64,000 bases of DNA from positions 1 to 64,000 of IMG/VR virus record IMGVR_UViG_3300037467_000284. One strand, given 5' to 3'. The position numbers and the translations under genes are program-made. Below the pieces are notes generated by a model, which was not told the origin of the DNA, searched no databases, and worked only from the letters and a program-made list of their open reading frames with translations. Within the stretch, counting starts at the first letter, position 1. Every line of letters starts with the position of its first letter. The stretch comes from a virus. Of the stretch, positions 2,717 to 42,061 are shown one piece after another.

Positions 2717-3385
2717 GTGAAAAAGATCATCGGCTACACCCGCGTATCGACCAAAGAGCAGGGCAAGACCCGGAACGGTCTTGAAGCGCAGGCGGAAGCT
2801 ATTCGGCTGTTCTGCCAGTACAACGGTTACGAATTGATCGAGATTGCTGAGGAAGTGCAATCCGGTGCTGACGATGATCGTCCTGTCCTCGCTGCCGTGA
2901 CAAAGCGTGCCAAAATGCTTGGAGCATTTGTGGTCGTGAACAAGCTAGATCGTTTGTCGCGTAGTGCCATCTTCATCCTGAACTACGTTCAGCAAAACTC
3001 AAAGTTCATCGTGACGATGCTTGGCGAGGACGTTGACCCGTTCATGCTGCACATATACGCGGGTTTGGCCGAGAAAGAGCGGCTGATGATTTCCGACCGG
3101 ACCCGCGCTGGTCTTCAGGCCAAGAAAGCCCGTGGCGAGGCTCTAGGGGCGTCCAAAGACGTTCTTGCGAGGGCTACGACCAACTCGCACATCACGATCA
3201 AGGCCAACGCTGACGCTTTCGCTGAACGCCTGAAGCCGATGATTAGCCGGATGCTCGCAGCCGGGATGTCGTATCGGGCCATCGCAGAAGAATTAAACAG
3301 CACTGGGACCAAGACAGTCCGGGGCGGCAACTGGCACGCCAGTTCCGTGAGCAATCTCGTTGAACGTTTGGCTACGGAGGCTTAA
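2717..3385 (+). CDS. serine recombinase (resolvase/invertase family)
   Basis: GTG start after GGAGG. The N-terminus MKKIIGYTRVSTKEQ is the catalytic-serine motif of resolvases. The C-terminus has an HTH-like segment, GMSYRAIAEELN. Confidence 0.8.
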   Translation: MKKIIGYTRVSTKEQGKTRNGLEAQAEAIRLFCQYNGYELIEIAEEVQSGADDDRPVLAAVTKRAKMLGAFVVVNKLDRLSRSAIFILNYVQQNSKFIVTMLGEDVDPFMLHIYAGLAEKERLMISDRTRAGLQAKKARGEALGASKDVLARATTNSHITIKANADAFAERLKPMISRMLAAGMSYRAIAEELNSTGTKTVRGGNWHASSVSNLVERLATEA

Positions 3386-4256: not shown

Positions 4257-5504
4257 ATGCAAGAACGTACCACTGCGAAGATGGTTATCCCTTCGGAAAA
4301 CGGCTCCCGTCCCATCAAGGTTTGGACGACCGATGTCGAAGACGAAGCCATGACGCAACTCAAGAACCTCTCCCGCCTGCCCTTCATTGCGAAGGAAGGT
4401 GTAGCCTGTATGCCGGATGTCCACGCGGGCAAGGGTAGCACCGTAGGAACCGTTATCGCCACGGATAAGGCGATCATCCCGGCTGCGGTAGGTGTGGACA
4501 TTGGTTGCGGCATGGTGGCTACCCGCCTGTCGCTGAAGGCGCACCAGTTGCCGGATTCCCTAGCACGGATTCGTTCGGAAATCGAACGTGTCGTACCGAT
4601 GGGTACTGGCGGCAACCACACTGCCAAGACCGGCCTGATGAACGAGAACGGCTCTCGTATGGGTCCGTACGGATGGCTGGTCCACTCGCTGCGTAACAAC
4701 GATGCGGTGTCGAAAGTCTTCGGTGGGGACGCTGGTAAAGCTGGCGAAAAGGCGTGGAGCCAAGTCGGTACTCTGGGATCGGGGAACCACTTCATCGAAA
4801 TCTGTATCGACCAGAACGACGATGTGTGGGTAATGCTGCACTCCGGTTCCCGTGGCATCGGCAACATGATCGGTCAGTACTACATCGACAAGGGTAAGGA
4901 ACTGATGGAGCAGTTTCACATTACGCTACCTGATGGCGACCTCGCCTACCTGCCGCAAGGGACCGACCTGTTCGAAGACTACGTAGCTGCCGTCCAGTGG
5001 GCGCAGGACTACGCGATGGAAAATCGCAAGTGGATGCTGAAAGCAGTGCTCGATGTGCTTCGCCGTGAGATTCCGGTAACGTTCGGTATCACGGAAGAGG
5101 CAATCAACTGCCACCACAACTACGTAGTACAGGAGAACCATTTTGGAAAGAACCTGTGGATCACTCGCAAAGGCGCTATCCGTGCCCGTGAAGGCGATCT
5201 GGGCATCATTCCGGGCTCGATGGGAGCAAAGAGCTACATCGTACGCGGGAAAGGCAACAAAGAGTCCTACTGCTCGTGCTCGCACGGGGCGGGGCGTAAG
5301 ATGTCACGGTCGAAGGCCCGTCAGATGTTCACTGTCGCTGACCTGAAGGCACAAACGCAGGGCGTAGAGTGCCGTAAGGACGATGCAGTACTTGACGAGA
5401 TTCCGGGCTCGTACAAAGACATTGACGTAGTGATGGAAAACCAGAAGTCTTTGGTTGAAGTTGTACATACGCTACGCGCTGTTCTTTGCTGCAAGGGTGC
5501 GTGA
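4257..5504 (+). CDS. rtcB: RtcB-family RNA 3'-phosphate ligase
   Basis: 415 aa with an AAGGAG RBS. GSGNHFIE, HSGSRGIGN, CHHNY and CSHGAGR motifs are characteristic of RtcB. Confidence 0.9.
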   Translation: MQERTTAKMVIPSENGSRPIKVWTTDVEDEAMTQLKNLSRLPFIAKEGVACMPDVHAGKGSTVGTVIATDKAIIPAAVGVDIGCGMVATRLSLKAHQLPDSLARIRSEIERVVPMGTGGNHTAKTGLMNENGSRMGPYGWLVHSLRNNDAVSKVFGGDAGKAGEKAWSQVGTLGSGNHFIEICIDQNDDVWVMLHSGSRGIGNMIGQYYIDKGKELMEQFHITLPDGDLAYLPQGTDLFEDYVAAVQWAQDYAMENRKWMLKAVLDVLRREIPVTFGITEEAINCHHNYVVQENHFGKNLWITRKGAIRAREGDLGIIPGSMGAKSYIVRGKGNKESYCSCSHGAGRKMSRSKARQMFTVADLKAQTQGVECRKDDAVLDEIPGSYKDIDVVMENQKSLVEVVHTLRAVLCCKGA

Positions 5505-7359: not shown

Positions 7360-7509
7360 ATGCGCTGGCTATTTGAATTCCTCTGCATTTTCATCCGGGC
7401 CTGCTTGTACACCGCCATCGTTCTGACAGCGGTGGTATTGATATTCTCCCTCATCTTCGCAGTGCTTTGCCCTCACTTCAACATTCTGGACCCCCATTCC
7501 TGCCGCTAG
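7360..7509 (+). CDS. possible 49-aa membrane protein
   Basis: ATG 6 nt after GAGG. The product is hydrophobic. Its stop overlaps the stop of the convergent gene 7506-7778. Found manually. Confidence 0.4.
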   Translation: MRWLFEFLCIFIRACLYTAIVLTAVVLIFSLIFAVLCPHFNILDPHSCR

Positions 7510-7778
7510 GCATTATCGTTCACGCTCTCTACAGTGACAGGCGGAGGCCACGGGGACTCCCTCACTAGCCACATACCTCTTTCCGGATCGAGGTGATACG
7601 CACGGCAAAGCGCTGCCTTGGCGTCTCGTTCGTTACGTCCCCACAGCCTCCCCATCCACCGGGCATTCAGGAAAATATCGTAATGCTTGCCCGGATAGCT
7701 CGTCATTCCTATCCCTCTCGCCATGTCTCCGGCCGCTAGACGGAGCCAGCGGGAGAAATCATCCTCTTGCGTTTCCAT
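7506..7778 (-). CDS. hypothetical protein
   Basis: 90 aa with an AGGGG RBS-like element 6 nt upstream. Confidence 0.5.
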   Translation of the reverse strand: METQEDDFSRWLRLAAGDMARGIGMTSYPGKHYDIFLNARWMGRLWGRNERDAKAALCRAYHLDPERGMWLVRESPWPPPVTVESVNDNA

Positions 7779-7963
7779 TTCAGCCCCTATAAATCAAGAT
7801 AACCCCTTGATTTTAAAAATAAAATTTAAAATTTGCCTATGGCAGCACATTATATCGCCAATGGCGAAATATATCTTGCACCAAAACAGCAGAGTTTGAA
7901 CCGAATTGTCTATGAGAAAGGGCATCCAGGAATGCTCATCTTGAGCAAGAGCGAGGGGTGACT

Positions 7964-8125
7964 TTAACTCCGGAGAATTGCCGCCTTAGCTGCGGTTTCA
8001 AGAGCCACTTTAAGCTCTTTAAGGTCAATAGGATCAGCGTTAAGGAACTCTTCAACGTAAGCCTTGAGAACCTCGACGGAATCTAGATGATCTTCGACAT
8101 TAAAGGGGAGCGTTTCGCCTGCCAT
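7964..8125 (-). CDS. small protein resembling the N-terminal part of COG3636/HigA-like antidote proteins (no HTH part)
   Basis: ATG at 8125 preceded by AGGAGG. FNVEDHLDSVEVLKAYVEEFLNADP...ALETAAKA resembles the F..a.yLDs.E.i.aYL motif of that family. Only 53 aa. The similarity is from memory. Confidence 0.45.
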   Translation of the reverse strand: MAGETLPFNVEDHLDSVEVLKAYVEEFLNADPIDLKELKVALETAAKAAILRS

Positions 8126-8569
8126 GTTGCCTCCTAAAATAAAAATTTTGAGAATGGGCAGCATACCACATTTCCTCGGGTAGCGAGAGGGTTGCTTAAC
8201 GGCCCTTACCTGCCTGAAACATGCCTCTCTGGCTTGCCAGAAATATCCATAGGGCCATTTCTCAGGAGAGATGAGGGAACATACCGGGACAGGCCCAGTG
8301 GGCTCAGAAGGCCGCTATTCGGCTCCTATAGCCTGTGTACAAATTGCTGACGTTCGTTACCATTGTGTACAGCGTCTATACCAGTGTGGATAACATAAGC
8401 TAGACCATAGGCCGAGAAAGCCTCTAGGACCGCATAGGAGAGGCTACAAGGCCCGAACATTGACCTGTCTATGGTTTGACTAGGCCATAGGCCAGAATGA
8501 TCCTGTAGAGCCTCTGGCTCTGGCTGAGCTAGGACACGGACAAATGTCCGTACAGTGCAACAAATGTTT

Positions 8570-8601
8570 GTTTCACGTGAAACACAAGCGCCACAGGCGC
8601 A
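8570..8601 (+). repeat. 32-bp perfect direct repeat, copy 1
   Basis: GTTTCACGTGAAACACAAGCGCCACAGGCGCA. It contains the 14-bp palindrome GTTTCACGTGAAAC and the hairpin GCGCC-ACA-GGCGC. Confidence 0.9.
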
Positions 8602-8689
8602 GAATTCCTGCTAAGAAAGAAGAGTTAAAGAACGTTCGACGGCTTAACCAGCCGCCCCCGATCTGTTTGTAGACACATAACTTTTGAAC

Positions 8690-8721
8690 GTTTCACGTGA
8701 AACACAAGCGCCACAGGCGCA
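8690..8721 (+). repeat. 32-bp perfect direct repeat, copy 2
   Basis: Identical to 8570-8601 and exactly 120 bp downstream. Confidence 0.9.
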
Positions 8722-8954
8722 TTAACATCAAGGGCCATAGGCCCATAACAATCCGCCCGCCTCTGTTATCAGACATAGGGATATGACCATACTGAGCCAT
8801 TGGCTCAGGTGATCAGGTGATATAACGCCATAGGCGATGCCATATAACGTGCCATAGGCACAAAGCCGTTTCAGCCGTTGGCTATATAGCCTTATTCTTT
8901 GCCATAGGCAACTAACATTGTCAATTTTAGAATGTTTCCTCTAGTGCAAAATGG

Positions 8955-8983
8955 TTGACTTTTGGCAAGGTGTATGCTACCCT
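8955..8983 (+). promoter_or_regulatory. candidate sigma70-type promoter inside the hairpin tract
   Basis: TTGACT (8955-8960), 17 nt, TACCCT (8978-8983), the same -10 as promoter 32390-32418. It would transcribe hairpins 8993-9195 toward the hairpin at 9500-9517. Confidence 0.35.
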
Positions 8984-9490
8984 AACCCACGAGTGCCATA
9001 GCACGAGTGGTAATAGAAAGCAAGTACTATTTAGTTATATAGTGCCGTAGGCACAAAACATATGTTATGAGCCTATGGCTCTATACGTATGGTCCCGTAG
9101 GGACAGAGGAACGACTCCCGTATAGGGGAGTCGATAGGGGGAGAGGGATTTGATAGGCCATAGGCCAAGTAGATAGTGTTATGTGCCTATGGCACTAGAG
9201 GGACTGGAGAGACGTTCCACCGGGCAGGATGGCGGGACAATCCTAAAGGGATAATCATGCATTCAGTATGCACGTTTGAATAGAGGCGTTTAGAGCCGTT
9301 TATTTTGATGAGTTGGTATGAGGGTAGCCTAGCACTTGCGTTCGTGCCTTTGTAGCGCCTCTGGTGCGGTCTGAGAGGCATTGGCACATATTCCGCTAGC
9401 CCTGCTATCCAAGGGTATGCCAAAGGACAGGCTATTCCCTGTGTTACTTGAGGACTACTTTAGTAATACTTGAGTTGTCAAGTATTGCAT

Positions 9491-9520
9491 AAATAAAAAG
9501 GCCCGAATTAACGGGCCTTT
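9491..9520 (-). terminator. rho-independent terminator ending the AT-rich leftward operon
   Basis: GGCCCG-AATTAA-CGGGCC (9500-9517). On the minus strand it is followed by TTTTTATTTAT. It lies just after the stop of gene 9523-9756. Confidence 0.75.
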
Positions 9521-9522
9521 GC

Positions 9523-9756
9523 CTATCCACCTTTCGACCATCTGCCGCGTGATTTGTCGTCATACGCTGCTATCAATTCCCTCATTTCCCATATTCCCCA
9601 TGCTTGAGGGAATTCTATCAATTCGACAATTGCGCCTGTAGGGCTGAAAGAGGCGAATTGATAAACTGGCGTGTCCCTGTTGTCGATAGCGTAAATCTGT
9701 GCGCTCACAGCTCCGCTACCACTGTAATTCATCAGCCGTTGCACCAAGCGAGACAT
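9523..9756 (-). CDS. hypothetical protein
   Basis: 77 aa with an AGGAA RBS. It is the last gene of the leftward operon. Confidence 0.6.
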   Translation of the reverse strand: MSRLVQRLMNYSGSGAVSAQIYAIDNRDTPVYQFASFSPTGAIVELIEFPQAWGIWEMRELIAAYDDKSRGRWSKGG

Positions 9757-12047: not shown

Positions 12048-12542
12048 TCAATTGTTATAGAAGTAATGCCCATTCGATTCGAAAAACGAATGGCTCAAAT
12101 CCCCGTTCCAATAGTGCTCCCAATCGATATAAGCAAACATTGGGTGACTTTCCTCAATCAAGCCAGTCTCTATTGCCCACTCTTCCGCAAAGTCTTTGCC
12201 GGAGTCGTATTTGCCTCTGTAATTGTCGCGTGCTGTTGCGAAATCACATTCACCGCAATTGGCAATATACGCTGCCCACATTTCCCGGTCATCTTCCTCC
12301 AATGCGGCAAGCTCAAAAGCTTTTTCGTTAATCGATGATTCGCTGATCAGAGCGTCCGGAATGTCTTCCCAATCTTGGAACATGAATTCAGGGTCAGATT
12401 CGTCCGCGTGAATTTCACGGCATTTTTCGTAGAATTCGTCTTTATCGTTGAAGTCTTCCAAATCAAGCCACTCACCTTTCAAGCTGCCTGAATTGTATTT
12501 GGCATAAGTGCCAACATAAACACGCATAGTGTCATTCGCCAT
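12048..12542 (-). CDS. ardA: ArdA-family anti-restriction protein
   Basis: 164 aa and very acidic. RVYVGTYAKYNSGSLKGEWLDLEDF... and the C-terminal ...AYIDWEHYWNGDLSHSFFESNGHYF match the ArdA (type I R-M inhibitor, DNA mimic) pattern. Confidence 0.8.
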   Translation of the reverse strand: MANDTMRVYVGTYAKYNSGSLKGEWLDLEDFNDKDEFYEKCREIHADESDPEFMFQDWEDIPDALISESSINEKAFELAALEEDDREMWAAYIANCGECDFATARDNYRGKYDSGKDFAEEWAIETGLIEESHPMFAYIDWEHYWNGDLSHSFFESNGHYFYNN

Positions 12543-12862: not shown

Positions 12863-13185
12863 TATTGCCCCTTAGTGAATTTAAATTCGTGTTTGATTAC
12901 CTGTTTTATTTCGATGCCGTAATGCGTCAAAAACGCCCCGTATGCACTAGCTAGCTTTTGCCATGCATCCGCATCATCCGGGATACCAAGCAACTCTAAA
13001 CGCTTGTCTATCGCCTTCTCGTAACATCGGGGCATATCTTCAGGATTCGCACCAATATCTGTTTGTTCGCCATTACCAGTGACACGGATAATGTACGAAT
13101 TGGCGTTTTGAGCGTGTTTCTTGAAGTAGATGCCATATGGCGCACCACTGGCACGCAAAAGCTTAACCTGAGTTGTTTTAGTCAT
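12862..13185 (-). CDS. hypothetical protein
   Basis: ATG at 13185 preceded by AAGGA. The longer track ORF to 13290 runs through the intercistronic hairpin. Confidence 0.55.
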   Translation of the reverse strand: MTKTTQVKLLRASGAPYGIYFKKHAQNANSYIIRVTGNGEQTDIGANPEDMPRCYEKAIDKRLELLGIPDDADAWQKLASAYGAFLTHYGIEIKQVIKHEFKFTKGQ

Positions 13186-13214
13186 ACCTGTGCATCCTTC
13201 TAAGTAAATCCGAC

Positions 13215-13237
13215 AATGCCTAGACCAGCTAGGCATT
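13215..13237 (-). repeat. intercistronic stem-loop family, copy 4
   Basis: Plus strand AATGCCTAG-5 nt-CTAGGCATT followed by AGCTG. It lies between the stop at 13244 and the start at 13185. Confidence 0.7.
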
Positions 13238-13243
13238 AGCTGA

Positions 13244-13573
13244 TTAACTCTCAGCGTAGCTCTTAACAGCCCATTCGATATACGGGGCAACCCCTAAGCC
13301 GTGCAAGCCGTATCCGATGGCATCGCCAATGTATGCGATGCATTCGCTTTCGGCGTGACCAAGCCACTTTGAGATGACCACGCCGGTAACGGCTACTATG
13401 GTTCCAGTGGCGAGCCTGTAATAAAGCGGATGATCGTGACCGAACATCAGATTGCACAACGGATGCATGATATTCAGCCTGATCAGGACACGCTTGATAA
13501 CGCCCGGCTTTTTGGCATGGATAGTTGCCAGCTTGTTTTTGCCTTTCAATGGTGCGTTCGTGTGGCGAAACAT
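13244..13573 (-). CDS. hypothetical membrane protein
   Basis: 109 aa with hydrophobic central segments and an RBS present. Confidence 0.55.
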   Translation of the reverse strand: MFRHTNAPLKGKNKLATIHAKKPGVIKRVLIRLNIMHPLCNLMFGHDHPLYYRLATGTIVAVTGVVISKWLGHAESECIAYIGDAIGYGLHGLGVAPYIEWAVKSYAES

Positions 13574-13608
13574 TTTTATTATTCCCCTTGGTAATTTTGG
13601 TTTAGGTT

Positions 13609-14022
13609 TTATACAAAAACTTCGATTGCGGGCACAACATCCTCATGTGCAACAGCTCCGGCCAGAATTGCATCACGTTCGCGTTTCGCAATGAACGCTT
13701 TGCGAGTGATGCCGAGACTTACAGGCACGCTATCAGGACCATATACGGCGATGTTTGCTGGCGCATCCCATTCAAAGCCAACCGTTGCGATATACGGTGC
13801 ATCCGGGTCAACATCGGCTTTTGCGGCAGCGTAGCTATCGTACAAGTCGCCGGGATGGGCATTCAGCGTTCCCGGCTTGCCGGTGCGATGATAATAGCCC
13901 TGCTCGTAAATGTTCATGTAGCTAATGCGCTTTGCTTTAGCTGGAGTGCCAAACACGCGAACGGCAGCGAAGAGGCGCGCGAACAGATTACGGATGATGA
14001 TTGCTTTGATAAAGTTTTTCAT
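13609..14022 (-). CDS. hypothetical protein with N-terminal signal/anchor-like segment
   Basis: 137 aa. The N-terminus MKNFIKAIIIRNLFARLFAAVRVFG is hydrophobic. Confidence 0.55.
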   Translation of the reverse strand: MKNFIKAIIIRNLFARLFAAVRVFGTPAKAKRISYMNIYEQGYYHRTGKPGTLNAHPGDLYDSYAAAKADVDPDAPYIATVGFEWDAPANIAVYGPDSVPVSLGITRKAFIAKRERDAILAGAVAHEDVVPAIEVFV

Positions 14023-14047
14023 TTTTATTCCTCTTGGTATTAGTTAT

Positions 14048-14497
14048 TTATTGGATGAAGGTGTCAATACTGAATTTGCCGCTACCTGAAAAAACGCTAA
14101 CGAATAGCAATGCCATCAAAAGAATCTCAGGCAAGAAAAGCCAATTCGTTGCCCGGTCAAGCGTGTTGAAATTGCTTCGGGCATTTACCTTACGCGGGCC
14201 AGTCGTCACTGTGGCGACTATACAAACGATTATCAGCACGGCAGCGTGGAACGCAGTGAGAAAACCAATTGCATAGGCTAATCCACCGAAGCATTCCCAA
14301 AAAGCTACCCACCAGCAAAAGAAACTCACGAACGGAATTTGACATCCCGTTAAGCTGGCTATCAGGTTTTTATGTCCCTGATTTGTGAACAGCTTATTGA
14401 ATCCGGACATTGCGAAAAATACGCCAACAATAAAACGCGGGATGAAAAGCGCAATGTCATTTGCCGGAATCCCTTGCGTGACAAGCAAAAGCAACAT
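14048..14497 (-). CDS. DoxX-like integral membrane protein
   Basis: ATG at 14497 after GGAGG. It has four hydrophobic helices. IPRFIVGVFFAMSGFNKLF resembles the DoxX N-terminal motif. The family call is from memory. Confidence 0.5.
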   Translation of the reverse strand: MLLLLVTQGIPANDIALFIPRFIVGVFFAMSGFNKLFTNQGHKNLIASLTGCQIPFVSFFCWWVAFWECFGGLAYAIGFLTAFHAAVLIIVCIVATVTTGPRKVNARSNFNTLDRATNWLFLPEILLMALLFVSVFSGSGKFSIDTFIQ

Positions 14498-14501
14498 TTG
14501 T

Positions 14502-15053
14502 CTATGCCTCCATAGGCTCACGGATGAGGCGCAGAACGGCGAATTGCGTCTCAGTGTCGAAACGGGCAATGTATGCCGGTAATTGGGAAACAACCCACTC
14601 CAATTGATTTTCCGGGAATTGCCCGTTATTGCCTTTTGCATACAGGCTTTGCCCAATGGTGTCGGCGTACATGAGCAATGCTTCAAGCGATGTTTGCCCG
14701 AAAAATTCTTGCACTTCCCGCACGTGGATTGCACCAATGGCGATTTCCTCAGCCGTGCTAAACCCTTTGTTCAGGACGCAGTGCAAAACATCGTGCCAGA
14801 AACGAAATGCCCAGTTTGCACCAGCATTCGTGTAAATCGTGTTTTCACTTGCACCACGCCACACAGGCAGCGCGTGCCCGGTGGATTTGGACGCGTTCCA
14901 AGCCGTTTTAAGCTCGTTGAAATCATCCGGAGCTGCCGCTACATCAATGTAGCCAAAGCCGATTTTCTTTGCGATTTCGTCAGCTTTGCGGATGGCGAAT
15001 TGAGACAGGTTAATGCGTGCGGCTTCGATGTTTCGGATATGGGCAAAAGTCAT
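14502..15053 (-). CDS. hypothetical protein
   Basis: 183 aa with an RBS present. Confidence 0.6.
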   Translation of the reverse strand: MTFAHIRNIEAARINLSQFAIRKADEIAKKIGFGYIDVAAAPDDFNELKTAWNASKSTGHALPVWRGASENTIYTNAGANWAFRFWHDVLHCVLNKGFSTAEEIAIGAIHVREVQEFFGQTSLEALLMYADTIGQSLYAKGNNGQFPENQLEWVVSQLPAYIARFDTETQFAVLRLIREPMEA

Positions 15054-15112
15054 TTTTATTGTTCCAATCTTGTTTAGGTTTTAGTCTCATCAGCGCACGC
15101 ATTACGTGCGGA

Positions 15113-15134
15113 CAAAAGACCGGCTAGGCCGGTC
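15113..15134 (-). terminator. internal terminator/attenuator hairpin in the leftward operon
   Basis: GACCGGC-TAG-GCCGGTC. On the minus strand it is followed by TTTTG. A second hairpin, CGCACG-CATTA-CGTGCG, lies just downstream. Confidence 0.5.
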
Positions 15135-15149
15135 CATTGTTTCGACTTG

Positions 15150-15404
15150 TTACGGATTGCGGAAACCCTCATGGTTTTCCTTTTCCATTTCTTCCAGCGT
15201 TTGAATCTTTGGCGCGAATTCCACTTTTTCACCGCACAATGAATAATGCGTCACGCTGATTTCGAATCCTTCAGACTTTGGAAACCGTTTAACGAAGTCT
15301 TCATAAACGGTTTTCATTGCATCACGCGTGGCTTGATTGAAACTACGCTCATGCGTGGCAAAGTAGTGTTTTCCGTGTTTTGAGACGTTGATTTCGTAGT
15401 ACAT
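15150..15404 (-). CDS. hypothetical protein
   Basis: ATG at 15404 preceded by AAGGGGAAA. The longer track form has no RBS. Confidence 0.55.
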   Translation of the reverse strand: MYYEINVSKHGKHYFATHERSFNQATRDAMKTVYEDFVKRFPKSEGFEISVTHYSLCGEKVEFAPKIQTLEEMEKENHEGFRNP

Positions 15405-15478
15405 GATTATTTCCCCTTGCGAATGATTTTGGAAAGAGCGGCACGGAAAGCGGCACGCTGTTGTTTTACAGACATTTA

Positions 15479-15673
15479 TTAATCCCCTTTTTGATATAAA
15501 ACCCAAATGCCAAACATTACCATCAGCAAAAAGATAATGTCAGTTGCGGCGCAGATGTACAGCAAATCACTTTGCACTTTGCCGTAGAAACCTATGCCGA
15601 TTGCCCCGTTAAAAACAATTCCAACAATCGAAAACAAAATCGTCAGAATTGCCAAGAAATTTTTTACTTTCAT
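15479..15673 (-). CDS. small membrane protein
   Basis: 64 aa with two hydrophobic helices. Confidence 0.55.
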   Translation of the reverse strand: MKVKNFLAILTILFSIVGIVFNGAIGIGFYGKVQSDLLYICAATDIIFLLMVMFGIWVLYQKGD

Positions 15674-15785
15674 TTAGTCCCCTTAGAAATAGGCTTTGAT
15701 CATCACGTAGATATCGATTCCAGCAAAAAGAACCGCAATGCCGAGCATGTAATACCCGGCTTTGCGCTCTTCCCTGTCCCTGATT

Positions 15786-16839: not shown

Positions 16840-17326
16840 TTTGTTACCCTCCTAAGAAATCACTAAAGTGAACACAAAATCATGCCTCCTGAACATGCCT
16901 AGATATATGTTCGGTTTAGCTCAGTCGGCATTGTTTTGCGCCTTATGGGCACATTCTTTTTTCCGTCATTCTTGACGTTTAATCACTCCCCGTCTCGCGT
17001 ACCATCCCGGTAGGCTATCGGATCAAAGCTTTCTTACTCGTATGCCGTGCCAAGAGGATTTAGGACCGAAGTCATGTCTACACTTGAACACTCAACTTAT
17101 CCGCTACACGCTGCCATCCCGGCAGTGCCACACTACTAAACTACTAAAACATACAACAGACCACAGAATACCAAACGGCTTAGGTATGTGCAATACCTAA
17201 ATCAAAATATTTCCACACGAATCGCAAAGCTGTTGCCTAACGACAAATTGCGCACGCGTAACACGCGAATAGCACGGGCCATGTAGCCGAGTCAAGCAAT
17301 TTCGGACGTAGTGTTGCTTTCCTATC

Positions 17327-18110
17327 TTATCCACAGGTTAGCAGCGTATCTAGCACTACTTATCCACATGCTCTAAAACGCGTTAAACGGGCCTGTAAGG
17401 CGTCCGGGAAGTCGGATGAACCCGTTTTCATCCGGTGTCCTGCGTGCCGTGGCAGTGCCTCAAAACGCGTTTAAACGGCATTGTCGAAAAGCAATTTTCT
17501 GTGGATAAGCTGTGGATTACACGTTTTTAACACTTTCAACATGAGTTTTTACATGGCATTTCGTCAGTCATCAAGCCGAACTCTGCCCGGACGGTAGGAC
17601 GCCACAACGGAAAACATCAGTAAAATCAATCACTTGAGTCTTATATAAGAGTTGGAAAATTCATCTATATGAATCGGTGGCACTCTTATATAAGACCTAA
17701 GACCACTCTTATATAAGACTAGGGAAAATGTAAAACACGGATTCATATAGATGACTAGATGAGTTAGTGGTATGGCTTTTGCCTTAGCAAGTAGCGTGCC
17801 AGCTACCACTACTTTGCCTGCTAGCTAGCCTGTCTTTGCTTTGTAGGTATGGTTCATAACCTTTTGTCATACCTTGTTTCCTGCTACGCTGGAACATCTG
17901 GGAATTTATACAGGATGGAACGAACGAAACATTAGGTTCTTACAAGCAATGTAATCACGGCTAGCTATTGCTATGCGATAGCTTATAAGCCGTGCTTATG
18001 CCTAGCTTTAGCTTGTGGATAACATGCATTGCTAGCAACTTTCCTAAAGGTTGTCCACAGGGACAGGGCTGTTTGCGCCTTTTGGCAGGGTTTTCCACAG
18101 CTTGTTCACA
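17327..18110. promoter_or_regulatory. DnaA-box cluster (oriC-like or DnaA-titrating region)
   Basis: Perfect TTATCCACA at 17327-17335 and 17360-17368. Perfect TGTGGATAA at 17500-17508 and 18014-18022. One-mismatch boxes at 17511-17519, 18051-18059 and 18091-18099. A two-mismatch box at 18102-18110. Confidence 0.7.
17638..17754. repeat. iteron-like 15-bp repeats plus a flanking 15-bp inverted repeat, AT-rich
   Basis: ACTCTTATATAAGAC at 17682-17696 and 17705-17719, with an inverted copy at 17638-17652. TTCATCTATATGAATC (17660-17675) pairs with GATTCATATAGATGA (17740-17754). Confidence 0.8.
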
Positions 18111-18270
18111 GATTTGCTGCTTTCAAGCAACGCCTTGCAATATTGGCAAGGAGTGGGCAGGATGTTAGCGCTAGCAGGAAAAGCAGCTCAGGGAAGGCTA
18201 GCAGCTAGAGACGCTTGGAAGGCTCCTAAACCTTCTGACTAAGATGGGGCGAGATAGGCTGGAACCACGC

Positions 18271-18341
18271 TAAGAAAGAAGTAGAAAATTCCCCACTCCC
18301 TGTCGAAATTCTGACTTCTGATTTCCAGATAGGATTTCGAG
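18271..18341 (+). repeat. long direct repeat, copy 1
   Basis: 18271-18309 is identical to 23629-23667 (39 of 39). The next 32 nt match 19 of 32 without gaps by manual alignment. Confidence 0.9.
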
Positions 18342-18349
18342 ACAAGCCC

Positions 18350-18379
18350 AAAAAGAAAAGCCCCGCACGAAGGCGGGGC
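18350..18379 (-). terminator. rho-independent terminator of the 22924-18407 leftward block
   Basis: GCCCCGC-ACGAAG-GCGGGGC. On the minus strand it is followed by TTTTCTTTTT. It lies 28 nt after the stop of gene 18407-18784. Confidence 0.75.
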
Positions 18380-18406
18380 CGGGACGCGTTTGGAAATTTT
18401 TACGTT

Positions 18407-41984: not shown

Positions 41985-42061
41985 GGGTCGTTAGCTCAGT
42001 GGACAGAGCATCGGTGTTCTAGGCCGATTGGTCGAGGGTTCGAATCCTTCACGACTCACCA
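41985..42061 (+). tRNA. tRNA-Arg (anticodon UCU), CCA encoded
   Basis: Manual cloverleaf:
- acceptor GGGTCGT/ACGACTC;
- D arm GCTC-AGTGGACA-GAGC;
- anticodon stem TCGGT/GCCGA with loop GTTCTAG;
- T arm GAGGG-TTCGAAT-CCTTC;
- discriminator A followed by CCA. Confidence 0.8.

Follow-up and report, generated by a model that had tools for sequence, protein, structure and literature searches.

What maintains a tract of more than a kilobase, in a phage genome, that holds no conserved reading frame and is crowded with short palindromes of one design? The tract in question lies within 7779-9530 of IMG/VR record IMGVR_UViG_3300037467_000284, of which 64,000 nucleotides (nt) were analyzed; this whole stretch is here called the window, and all coordinates refer to it unless labelled otherwise. 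An earlier note, made from the letters alone, had described the tract as a quasi-periodic array of about 25 GC-rich mini-hairpins with 3-nt loops. On the sequence evidence presented below the array is real, selected and clade-specific, and we were unable to place it in a described class. The tract would be a non-coding array of protein-recognition mini-hairpins particular to one phage clade.

No close DNA relatives of the window were found among 50,697 phage records or 72,556 plasmids. Relatives were retrieved from IMG/VR by means of RtcB and of a 16-mer of the hairpin tract, which yielded six metagenomic genomes of about 90 kb (L001, L002, L009, L041, L046, and L052+L054) with RtcB proteins 75-82% identical. 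L052 and L054 are two contigs of one genome that overlap by 127 bp within the hairpin tract. Throughout the clade the tract is flanked on one side by the end of the plus-strand RtcB operon and on the other by that of a minus-strand operon made up of small genes. A syntenic tract free of open reading frames (ORFs) is present in each of the six relatives, with 12-17 sites of the same design; the window has 18. Only 0-3 sites per genome fall outside the hairpin tract.

Hairpin Content of the Tract

Between 7834 and 9195 the window holds 18 perfect palindromes of the form NNCC-N3-GGNN (stem of at least 4 bp) and one longer 8-bp hairpin (9112-9133). The hairpins listed in the earlier note were all recovered, none displaced by more than 1 nt, although its total was a mild overcount, since the members beyond these are A/T-rich or imperfect. 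The hairpins discussed in the text are as follows.

7834-7844: mini-hairpin TGCC-TAT-GGCA
7855-7867: mini-hairpin TCGCC-AAT-GGCGA, with which the hairpin series starts in 7/7 genomes and identical in L001, L009, L041, and L052
8483-8493: mini-hairpin GGCC-ATA-GGCC
8507-8521: mini-hairpin AGAGCC-TCT-GGCTCT
8588-8600: mini-hairpin GCGCC-ACA-GGCGC, belonging to a 32-nt perfect direct repeat
8708-8720: mini-hairpin GCGCC-ACA-GGCGC
8732-8744: mini-hairpin GGGCC-ATA-GGCCC
8792-8808: mini-hairpin CTGAGCC-ATT-GGCTCAG; orthologues are GTGCC/GGCAC (L001, L009, L002) and GCTCC/GGAGC (L041)
8826-8836: mini-hairpin CGCC-ATA-GGCG
8849-8861: mini-hairpin GTGCC-ATA-GGCAC
8873-8883: mini-hairpin AGCC-GTT-GGCT
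8899-8911: mini-hairpin TTGCC-ATA-GGCAA
9042-9054: mini-hairpin GTGCC-GTA-GGCAC
9069-9081: mini-hairpin GAGCC-TAT-GGCTC (helix 1); the second pair of the orthologues is G-C in four genomes, U-A in two and A-U in one
9092-9104: mini-hairpin GTCCC-GTA-GGGAC
9112-9133: longer 8-bp hairpin CGACTCCC-GTATAG-GGGAGTCG
9156-9166: mini-hairpin GGCC-ATA-GGCC (helix 3)
9183-9195: mini-hairpin GTGCC-TAT-GGCAC (helix 4), the most conserved site; GCGCC-AAT-GGCGC in L041

The enrichment, for which shuffled controls had been proposed, is far outside chance expectation. In 1000 dinucleotide-preserving shuffles of 7779-9530, hairpins with a stem of at least 5 bp and a 3-nt loop averaged 1.8 (maximum 8) against 14 observed, and those with a stem of at least 4 bp averaged 7.1 against 27. 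The core GCC-N3-GGC occurs 16 times (shuffle mean 0.6) and the heptamers CCATAGG and CCTATGG 11 times together (shuffle mean 0.3). None of the 1000 shuffles matched any of these four counts. Windows of equal size in the remainder of the 64 kb average 1.9, 7.7, 0.35, and 0.03, respectively, and the hairpin excess is restricted to 3-nt loops. The heptamers had been counted correctly, with CCATAGG found eight times and CCTATGG three times in 7836-9186 and a single extra one elsewhere in the window, at 14510; TATAACG and TGTTATG, the flanking motifs, are likewise present. The claimed periodicity holds inside sub-clusters only, where centre-to-centre spacing has its mode at 23-28 nt across seven genomes. 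It does not extend over the whole array, which in the window is broken by gaps of 62-143 nt and by one of 627 nt containing a window-specific ORF.

The 13-nt Unit

The extent of the stem was measured at 101 sites pooled from five genomes, with only CC-N3-GG demanded. Moving outward, the arms are complementary at position 3 in 84/101 sites, at position 4 in 87/101, and at position 5 in 60/101. Position 6 is complementary in just 15/101, which is below chance, and usually presents A opposite A; the stem is therefore exactly 5 bp long, a property that the earlier note did not contain. The unit has the consensus A-[G N N C C]-[A W W]-[G G N' N' C]-A, in which the inner CC/GG is invariant and position 3 is mostly G. 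Position 4 may be T (27 sites), G (26), C (19), or A (6), paired to its complement. Many of the pooled sites are orthologous copies, so that counts of loops, flanks and polarity are not independent; with this limit, loops are AAT, ATT, ATA, or TAT in 64 of 78 perfect sites, ATA sites carry a 3' A, and TAT sites carry T on both sides. This coupling of loop and flank gives each unit a polarity, and both polarities occur, at about 60:40 with the plus strand commoner in the same non-independent sample.

Palindromes of this kind might be duplex operators for a dimeric phage regulator, in which case the array would serve as a sink or form a repression complex. The core that is preferred, GCCA-W-TGGC, forms a true palindrome, the sites are spaced at 23-28 bp in a manner reminiscent of iteron and operator arrays such as lambda ori, and loop usage is strand-symmetric. 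However, position 4 takes all four bases and is nevertheless paired in about 86% of sites, and a position that is variable yet nearly always complementary is not explained by a duplex-binding homodimer. Position 6 is mismatched above chance, as fits a defined stem end, and essentially no sites lie upstream of genes elsewhere in the 64 kb. Duplex operators are for these reasons decidedly unlikely. Iteron arrays of the lambda ori kind share with the tract repeated dyad sites with GC arms and an A/T centre, a spacing of about 22-25 bp, a non-coding setting, and DnaA boxes. Iterons, however, are near-identical within one replicon and are read as duplex, whereas the arms of the array differ between sites and stay complementary. 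In addition, the window has a separate oriC-like tract 8 kb from the array.

Covariation within the Phage Clade

Aligned across five genomes, the tract is homologous yet divergent: identity per column averages 55%, and indels are numerous. Where sites align, both arms of a stem may have changed, for example among GAGCC/GGCTC, GTGCC/GGCAC, and GCTCC/GGAGC. A block of 184 columns could be compared in seven genomes: its four helices show pairing in 87.6% of cells, both sides have changed at seven pairs, and the covariation score exceeds that of all 500 shuffles and all slid controls. The alignment with related phages that the earlier note had called for thus bears out its view that the stem, rather than a fixed sequence, is conserved. 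The longer hairpin is present in 7/7 genomes with differing stems, including TTGACCCC/GGGGTCAA, TTGGCCC/GGGCCAA, GGCCCCT/AGGGGCC, and GGCTCCC/GGGAGCC. The stretch 3' of it is purine-rich in 7/7 genomes and is not conserved in sequence.

A protein-coding tract was considered and rejected. Resemblances among the relatives are spread over all six frames and jump from one frame to another, and the six-frame comparison found no conserved reading frame in the tract, in agreement with the earlier observation that no ORF supported by a ribosome-binding site covers 8165-9480.

What the aligned genomes show is selection for the fold, for an exact stem length, for the loop-proximal sequence, and for many copies in one place. 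Covariation, fixed stem length, and the mismatched sixth position together argue that a folded single strand is under selection. The invariant CC/GG and the constrained loop argue that the fold is read sequence-specifically, and the many copies at one locus that binding would be multivalent. This reasoning is well supported, and from it we infer binding by one protein. Of the two targets of selection that had been left open, a folded strand and a dyad-symmetric duplex site, the compensatory changes favor the first and speak against a plain duplex dyad. The sequence rules, namely 13 nt, invariant CC/GG, a 5-bp stem, an A/T triloop, and unpaired flanks, are precise, so that the partner should be directly accessible to experiment.

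One clade member was assembled as two contigs because its assembly broke inside the hairpin tract, at the end of L052 and the start of L054 (IMG/VR 3300046528_000048 and _000143). This break suggests strain-level variation or repeat-induced graph branching at the locus.

Distribution Outside the Clade

The next relatives retain the slot and lack the array. L003, with an RtcB 75% identical, keeps 1.6 kb of ORF-free sequence in this position, and downstream of RtcB in Bordetella phage PHB04 (67%) lies an ORF-poor tract of 2.7 kb with three transfer RNA (tRNA) genes and one transfer-messenger RNA (tmRNA) gene; neither tract contains hairpins of the array design. The array is, as far as these genomes indicate, clade-specific. 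In the PHB04 record (L264, NC_047861) positions 13060-15765 are nearly gene-free, and ARAGORN calls there tRNA-Met, tRNA-Asn, tRNA-Pro, and a tmRNA with the tag ANDDYIRAAA. A phage tmRNA is also encoded by L006 (4369-4771).

Wider searches gave the same picture. No tract homology was found outside the clade by blastn, and a metagenome scan with RtcB produced no further array-bearing genome. A three-site pattern run against IMG/VR returned, among the matches listed, simple tandem repeats and GC-rich chance matches only. Across 185,579 genomes of bacterial species, a paired-site pattern that recovers 6/7 clade genomes gave 15 single matches, no more than chance would produce, and no array. Nothing in the window reached the Rfam gathering score, matches within 7700-9600 being at chance level (E >= 3), and ARAGORN detected no tRNA or tmRNA remnants in the tract of any clade member. 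Pfam and PHROG scans of the approximately 88 window ORFs revealed no ParB, HUH transposase or REP-associated tyrosine transposase (RAYT), Cas6, TROVE, or RNA polymerase domain. The statement that no named element class has this design was upheld, since neither the Rfam, IMG/VR nor bacterial-genome scans provided a counterpart.

A rival explanation drawn from bacterial repeats is a cluster of repetitive extragenic palindromes or bacterial interspersed mosaic elements (REP/BIME), which at convergent operons would bind gyrase or protect mRNA 3' ends and would spread by local duplication. REPs are 20-40 bp long, with stems of 6-13 bp and a GTAG or CGTC tag that is left unpaired; they occur scattered, in hundreds of copies, and are tied to RAYT transposases (PMC3733652). 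Like them, the array consists of short GC-rich palindromes with covarying stems, short linkers, 2-3-nt loops, and a purine-rich TAG-like 5' flank, present in both orientations and extragenic between convergent operons (PMC3733652). Local duplication has also occurred, as a 32-nt perfect direct repeat (8570-8601 and 8690-8721, 120 bp apart) in which each copy comprises a parS site followed by a mini-hairpin. However, the unit of the array is 13 nt rather than 20-40 bp, with pairing that ends after exactly 5 bp. Its 5' flank is (C/A)TA with the next G, that of the TAG, base-paired, and there is no CGTC. The copies are confined to one phage tract instead of being dispersed in high copy, and the 185,579 bacterial species genomes hold no such paired sites above chance. 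No RAYT was found among the roughly 88 ORFs of the window, outside which lie some 27 kb of the genome, and about 1.3 kb is far beyond what 3'-end protection needs. A REP/BIME-like role is quite unlikely.

Three further candidates were dropped. A CRISPR array, or a solitary-repeat RNA anti-CRISPR, would have near-identical direct repeats of 23-47 nt and constant spacers, whereas here the stems differ, the orientation is mixed, and the spacing is irregular. Mimicry of the type I-F CRISPR repeat, which we take to be GCC-GUAUA-GGC, fails on loop length, on the closing base pair, and on handle position. A sigma-54 -24 element (TGGCAC) can be read within sites, with no -12 element after it.

Transcript or DNA Hairpins

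The remaining question is in which form the hairpins act. The signals other than mini-hairpins that bear on it are listed here.

7803-7833, strand not assigned: A/T-rich element CCTTGATTTTAAAAATAAAATTTAAAAT at the left tract edge; CTTGATTTTA and an A/T run are aligned in all relatives, just past the terminator of the upstream plus-strand operon
7964-8164, minus strand: 66-aa window-specific ORF that interrupts the tract
8165-8400, plus strand: best-conserved block of the tract, with GCTTAAC, CCAGAAATATC, the invariant CCTGTGTACAAA (8332-8343), and, near 8346-8361, a hairpin that covaries
8385-8393, strand not assigned: perfect DnaA box TGTGGATAA
8569-8584: canonical chromosomal parS TGTTTCACGTGAAACA, first copy
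8689-8704: second copy of parS, CGTTTCACGTGAAACA, with one mismatch
8955-8983, plus strand: sigma-70-type promoter, TTGACT, a 17-nt spacer with TGC at its end, and TACCCT
8987-9010, plus strand: stem-loop predicted to lie at the 5' end of a transcript made from the 8955 promoter
9134-9149, plus strand: polypurine G-rich tract directly after the longer hairpin
9497-9520, minus strand: intrinsic terminator of the minus-strand operon and right boundary of the tract, a 9-bp stem followed by TTTTTATTT; the plus strand has only TTTG

No conserved -10 hexamer was found in the left-edge element (7803-7833) when the relatives were aligned. The ORF at 7964-8164 and another at 7506-7778, also on the minus strand, have no homologue in the relatives and no Pfam or PHROG match, and are judged to be window-specific insertions.

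We slightly favor an RNA platform over an array of DNA hairpins or cruciforms. In this proposal the active form would be a plus-strand non-coding transcript made from internal promoters, comprising the invariant 12-mer element CCTGTGTAYAAA and, where present, TTGACT-17-TACCCT. The transcript would present hairpins spaced by A/U- and G-rich single-stranded linkers, and one hairpin-specific protein would bind many copies, making it a multivalent platform that serves as a sponge or as an assembly scaffold. The proposal is tentative and is given somewhat less than an even chance.

Several observations favor RNA. In every genome the spacers are rich in G and in purines on their plus strand (GGGG 86 vs CCCC 27; GGGA 51 vs TCCC 12), an asymmetry that had gone unmentioned in the earlier note. 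The 8955 promoter recurs with the same hexamers in L009 and L041 (3/7 genomes) and is followed by a 5' stem-loop kept in structure and not in sequence: the L041 counterpart is unrelated in sequence and folds too (CCGTATTGC/GCGATACGG), with a U-G pair on the plus strand. The hairpin after the invariant 12-mer covaries through GC, CG, and UA changes and on the plus strand has five G-U and no A-C cells. The predicted folding energy of a single unit is -6 to -9 kcal/mol for RNA, and in PHB04 RNA genes (the three tRNAs and the tmRNA) occupy the same slot. Mixed orientation is compatible with an RNA-binding protein that reads the stem, because the GNNCC/GGNNC stem is identical in either orientation.

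A number of results weigh against the RNA platform. A candidate binding protein was not found among the approximately 88 window ORFs, whether by annotation or by phyletic pattern. The 8955 promoter is missing from 4/7 genomes (L001, L002, L046, and L052/L054), the invariant 12-mer lacks a convincing -35 element and does not recur in the window as a promoter motif, and the plus-strand terminator at the end of the tract is weak. RNAalifold found little long-range consensus structure in the left and right blocks on either strand. In the pooled, non-independent sample loop usage is strand-symmetric (AAT 16 vs ATT 18; ATA 14 vs TAT 14). Non-Watson-Crick cells at positions 3-5 divide as GT:AC:other = 12:12:48, which is the random ratio, so that wobble pairs are favored on neither strand. 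DNA-level sites, the DnaA box and parS, lie in the same tract. The structured non-coding RNA that the earlier note had proposed, in view of the promoter at 8955 and the hairpin near 9500, is compatible with the data, although its promoter is confined to 3/7 genomes and the hairpin (9497-9520) chiefly terminates the operon on its right, which runs on the minus strand. The sponge or decoy that the note had also suggested is a possible role.

The principal rival holds that the palindromes act at the DNA level, as single-stranded DNA hairpins or supercoil-extruded cruciforms to which a hairpin-specific protein binds, within a cis-acting region for replication, genome organization, or segregation. 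It would account for the strict Watson-Crick pairing with no G-T excess, for loops that are strand-symmetric and occur in both orientations, and for the loss of the 8955 promoter from four genomes. It also fits the DnaA box in 5/7 genomes, the two parS sites inserted in the window phage, and the sharing of TGTGGATAACAT and GCTAAGAAAGAAG between the hairpin tract and the oriC-like tract (16860-18400). As single-stranded DNA the units are predicted to be stable at -4 to -6 kcal/mol, and the G-rich non-template strand past the promoter would favor R-loops, with hairpins on the displaced strand. Phage N4 offers a precedent for a small extruded hairpin read by protein: its hairpins have 5-7-bp stems, 3-nt loops, and stems in which some positions are conserved and others vary, and physiological supercoiling is sufficient for them to extrude (PMC4496689). 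Against DNA hairpins, 13-bp palindromes seldom extrude, and the loops are not of the extra-stable GNA type of N4. The asymmetry of the spacers, the modules of promoter and 5' hairpin, and the G-U pairs after the 12-mer would be left unexplained. No hairpin-binding DNA protein of the HUH/RAYT, ParB, or single-subunit RNA polymerase kind was found in the 64-kb window, and a better origin candidate lies 8 kb away. A DNA-level role is judged only a little less probable than the RNA platform.

A narrower version of the N4 analogy, hairpin promoters for a phage single-subunit RNA polymerase, is the least probable explanation considered. The geometry is the same (a 5-7-bp stem and a 3-nt loop), as is the mixture of conserved and variable stem positions. 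In N4 early promoters, too, a GC-rich core has fixed bases while other bases need only pair, and the ligand is the hairpin, not the duplex (PMC4496689). N4, however, has three copies that face early genes at the genome end, GNA-type loops, and a virion RNA polymerase of 3,500 aa. The array has 12-20 copies in both orientations with nothing downstream to transcribe, and its loops are A/T (AAT, ATT, ATA, TAT). No polymerase-like ORF is present in the 64 kb, where the largest ORF is the 838-aa PolA.

For the favored plus-strand transcript, the nearest design would be that of multi-hairpin sponge RNAs of the CsrB/RsmZ type, with a different hairpin. CsrB, CsrC, RsmY, and RsmZ likewise iterate many short hairpins in one non-coding stretch, and the design of their unit persists while the number of copies and their spacing change rapidly in evolution. 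In those RNAs a loop-exposed GGA binds CsrA/RsmA, and the 100-370-nt transcripts have a clear promoter and terminator. In the array, GG is base-paired in the stem and the loops read AWW; the tract, about 1.3 kb long, has no Rfam match, and transcription is predicted. The putative transcript has a promoter of its own in 3/7 genomes, the invariant 12-mer, and a weak plus-strand terminator. A specific version is unlikely, namely a non-coding RNA of about 1.2 kb whose 15-20 mini-hairpins would act as a decoy that titrates a host hairpin-specific RNA-binding protein or a defence ribonuclease. If true, it would mean a phage-encoded RNA sponge of new design near RNA-repair genes (RtcB, RNA ligase). 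More generally, a host factor as partner would make the array a new nucleic-acid decoy, and a phage protein as partner would make it a new hairpin-reading DNA- or RNA-binding system. Protein-recognized hairpin arrays are seldom encountered, and every kind known so far, namely CRISPR repeats, REP/BIME, N4 promoters, and Csr sponges, has started a field of its own.

DnaA Boxes, parS Sites, and DNA Entry

The DnaA box reported at 8385-8393 is present and is perfect in the window, L009, L041, L046, and L052/L054 (5/7 genomes), with one mismatch in L001. Two parS sites, absent from the earlier note, accompany it in the window. The 16-bp palindrome TGTTNCACGTGAAACA occurs as one perfect copy (8569) and one with a single mismatch (8689); parS sites are absent from all six relatives and so belong to the window phage only. 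The pair implies, as far as sequence can, a ParABS-bearing host, and the window phage may recruit or titrate host ParB through it. Together, parS and DnaA sites in the tract suggest that lytic phages can borrow the chromosome-organization signals of the host.

A stronger origin candidate at 16860-18400 weakens the idea that the hairpin tract is itself an origin. This ORF-free tract is of the oriC type, with perfect DnaA boxes at 17327, 17360, 17500, and 18014, near-boxes at about 17510, 18050, 18085, and 18100, and three direct repeats (iterons) of (C)ACTCTTATATAAGAC in 17640-17720; the cumulative GC skew has its minimum at about 18 kb. Clusters of DnaA boxes are found at the matching place in L054 (6503-7133) and L041 (20288, 20444). 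The motif GC(C/T)AAGAAAGA, at 8610-8620 and 18269-18279, is shared unchanged by the hairpin tracts of all relatives and is found again in the oriC-like tract; if a single mismatch is tolerated the window contains nine copies, where 2.4 would arise by chance.

The earlier note had also likened the tract to the injection-stop signal (iss) of phage T5, and a T5-type injection-stop or first-step-transfer signal would share several of its properties. As in T5 iss, the tract is ORF-free over more than 1 kb (about 1.3 kb), positionally conserved within a phage group, rich in repeats and palindromes, and provided with a DnaA box. The T5 region was compared directly (from AY587007). It contains nine direct repeats (DRD) of TGTGCAAATCCGACA, A/T-rich palindromes, and eight DnaA boxes paired within large inverted repeats, and none of the array's hairpins. 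Its repeat inventory is thus wholly different, and it lies within the terminal repeat, at the inner end of the left copy and on the first-step-transfer boundary. The hairpin tract contains a single DnaA box and nothing that corresponds to the T5 IRD'-spacer-IRC', DRE, or DRD repeats, and the DnaA-box cluster of the window sits in another tract (16860-18400). Moreover, the phage is not a Demerecvirus, its PolA being closest to Plateaulakevirus and PAK_P3-like phages at 47-51% and its RtcB to PHB04. The analogy is not supported, and a signal of this type is very improbable. A genome terminus at the tract was likewise dropped: the contigs of the relatives end at differing distances from it, with no consistent end, so that nothing places the tract near a terminus.

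The Phages That Carry the Array

The window derives from a large phage of lytic type. RtcB is encoded at 4257-5504, and other genes specify an ATP-dependent DNA ligase, an RNA ligase, a T7-type primase/helicase, PolA, ribonucleotide reductase, NAMPT, ArdA, and a MazZ-like dNTP diphosphohydrolase. The best PolA identities are at most 51% to Aeromonas Plateaulakevirus phages and 47% to Pseudomonas PAK_P3-like phages; among isolates RtcB is best matched by PHB04 (Phabquatrovirus) at 67%. The array carriers represent an uncultured group of tRNA-rich phages with RNA-repair genes. Immediately left of the point matching the window start, the clade has a minus-strand block of 12-20 tRNA genes (in contig coordinates, L001 2438-5425; L002 2123-5112; L009 2224-5361; L041 158-6332; L052 195-1597). 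The sole tRNA gene inside the window is tRNA-Arg(TCT) at 41985-42061.

To the right of the tract, the minus-strand block of early-type small ORFs (9.5-24 kb) includes the anti-restriction protein ArdA (12048-12542, minus strand; PF07275, E 2e-25) and, from a pooled scan of ORFs, the N-terminal domain of a MazZ-like dATP/dGTP diphosphohydrolase (PF18909). To its left, a small serine recombinase of the resolvase/invertase type is encoded at 2717-3385 on the plus strand and is 70-76% identical within the clade. Its L003 homologue, 32% identical, is encoded at 13535-14176 of that genome and directly adjoins the L003 ORF-free tract.

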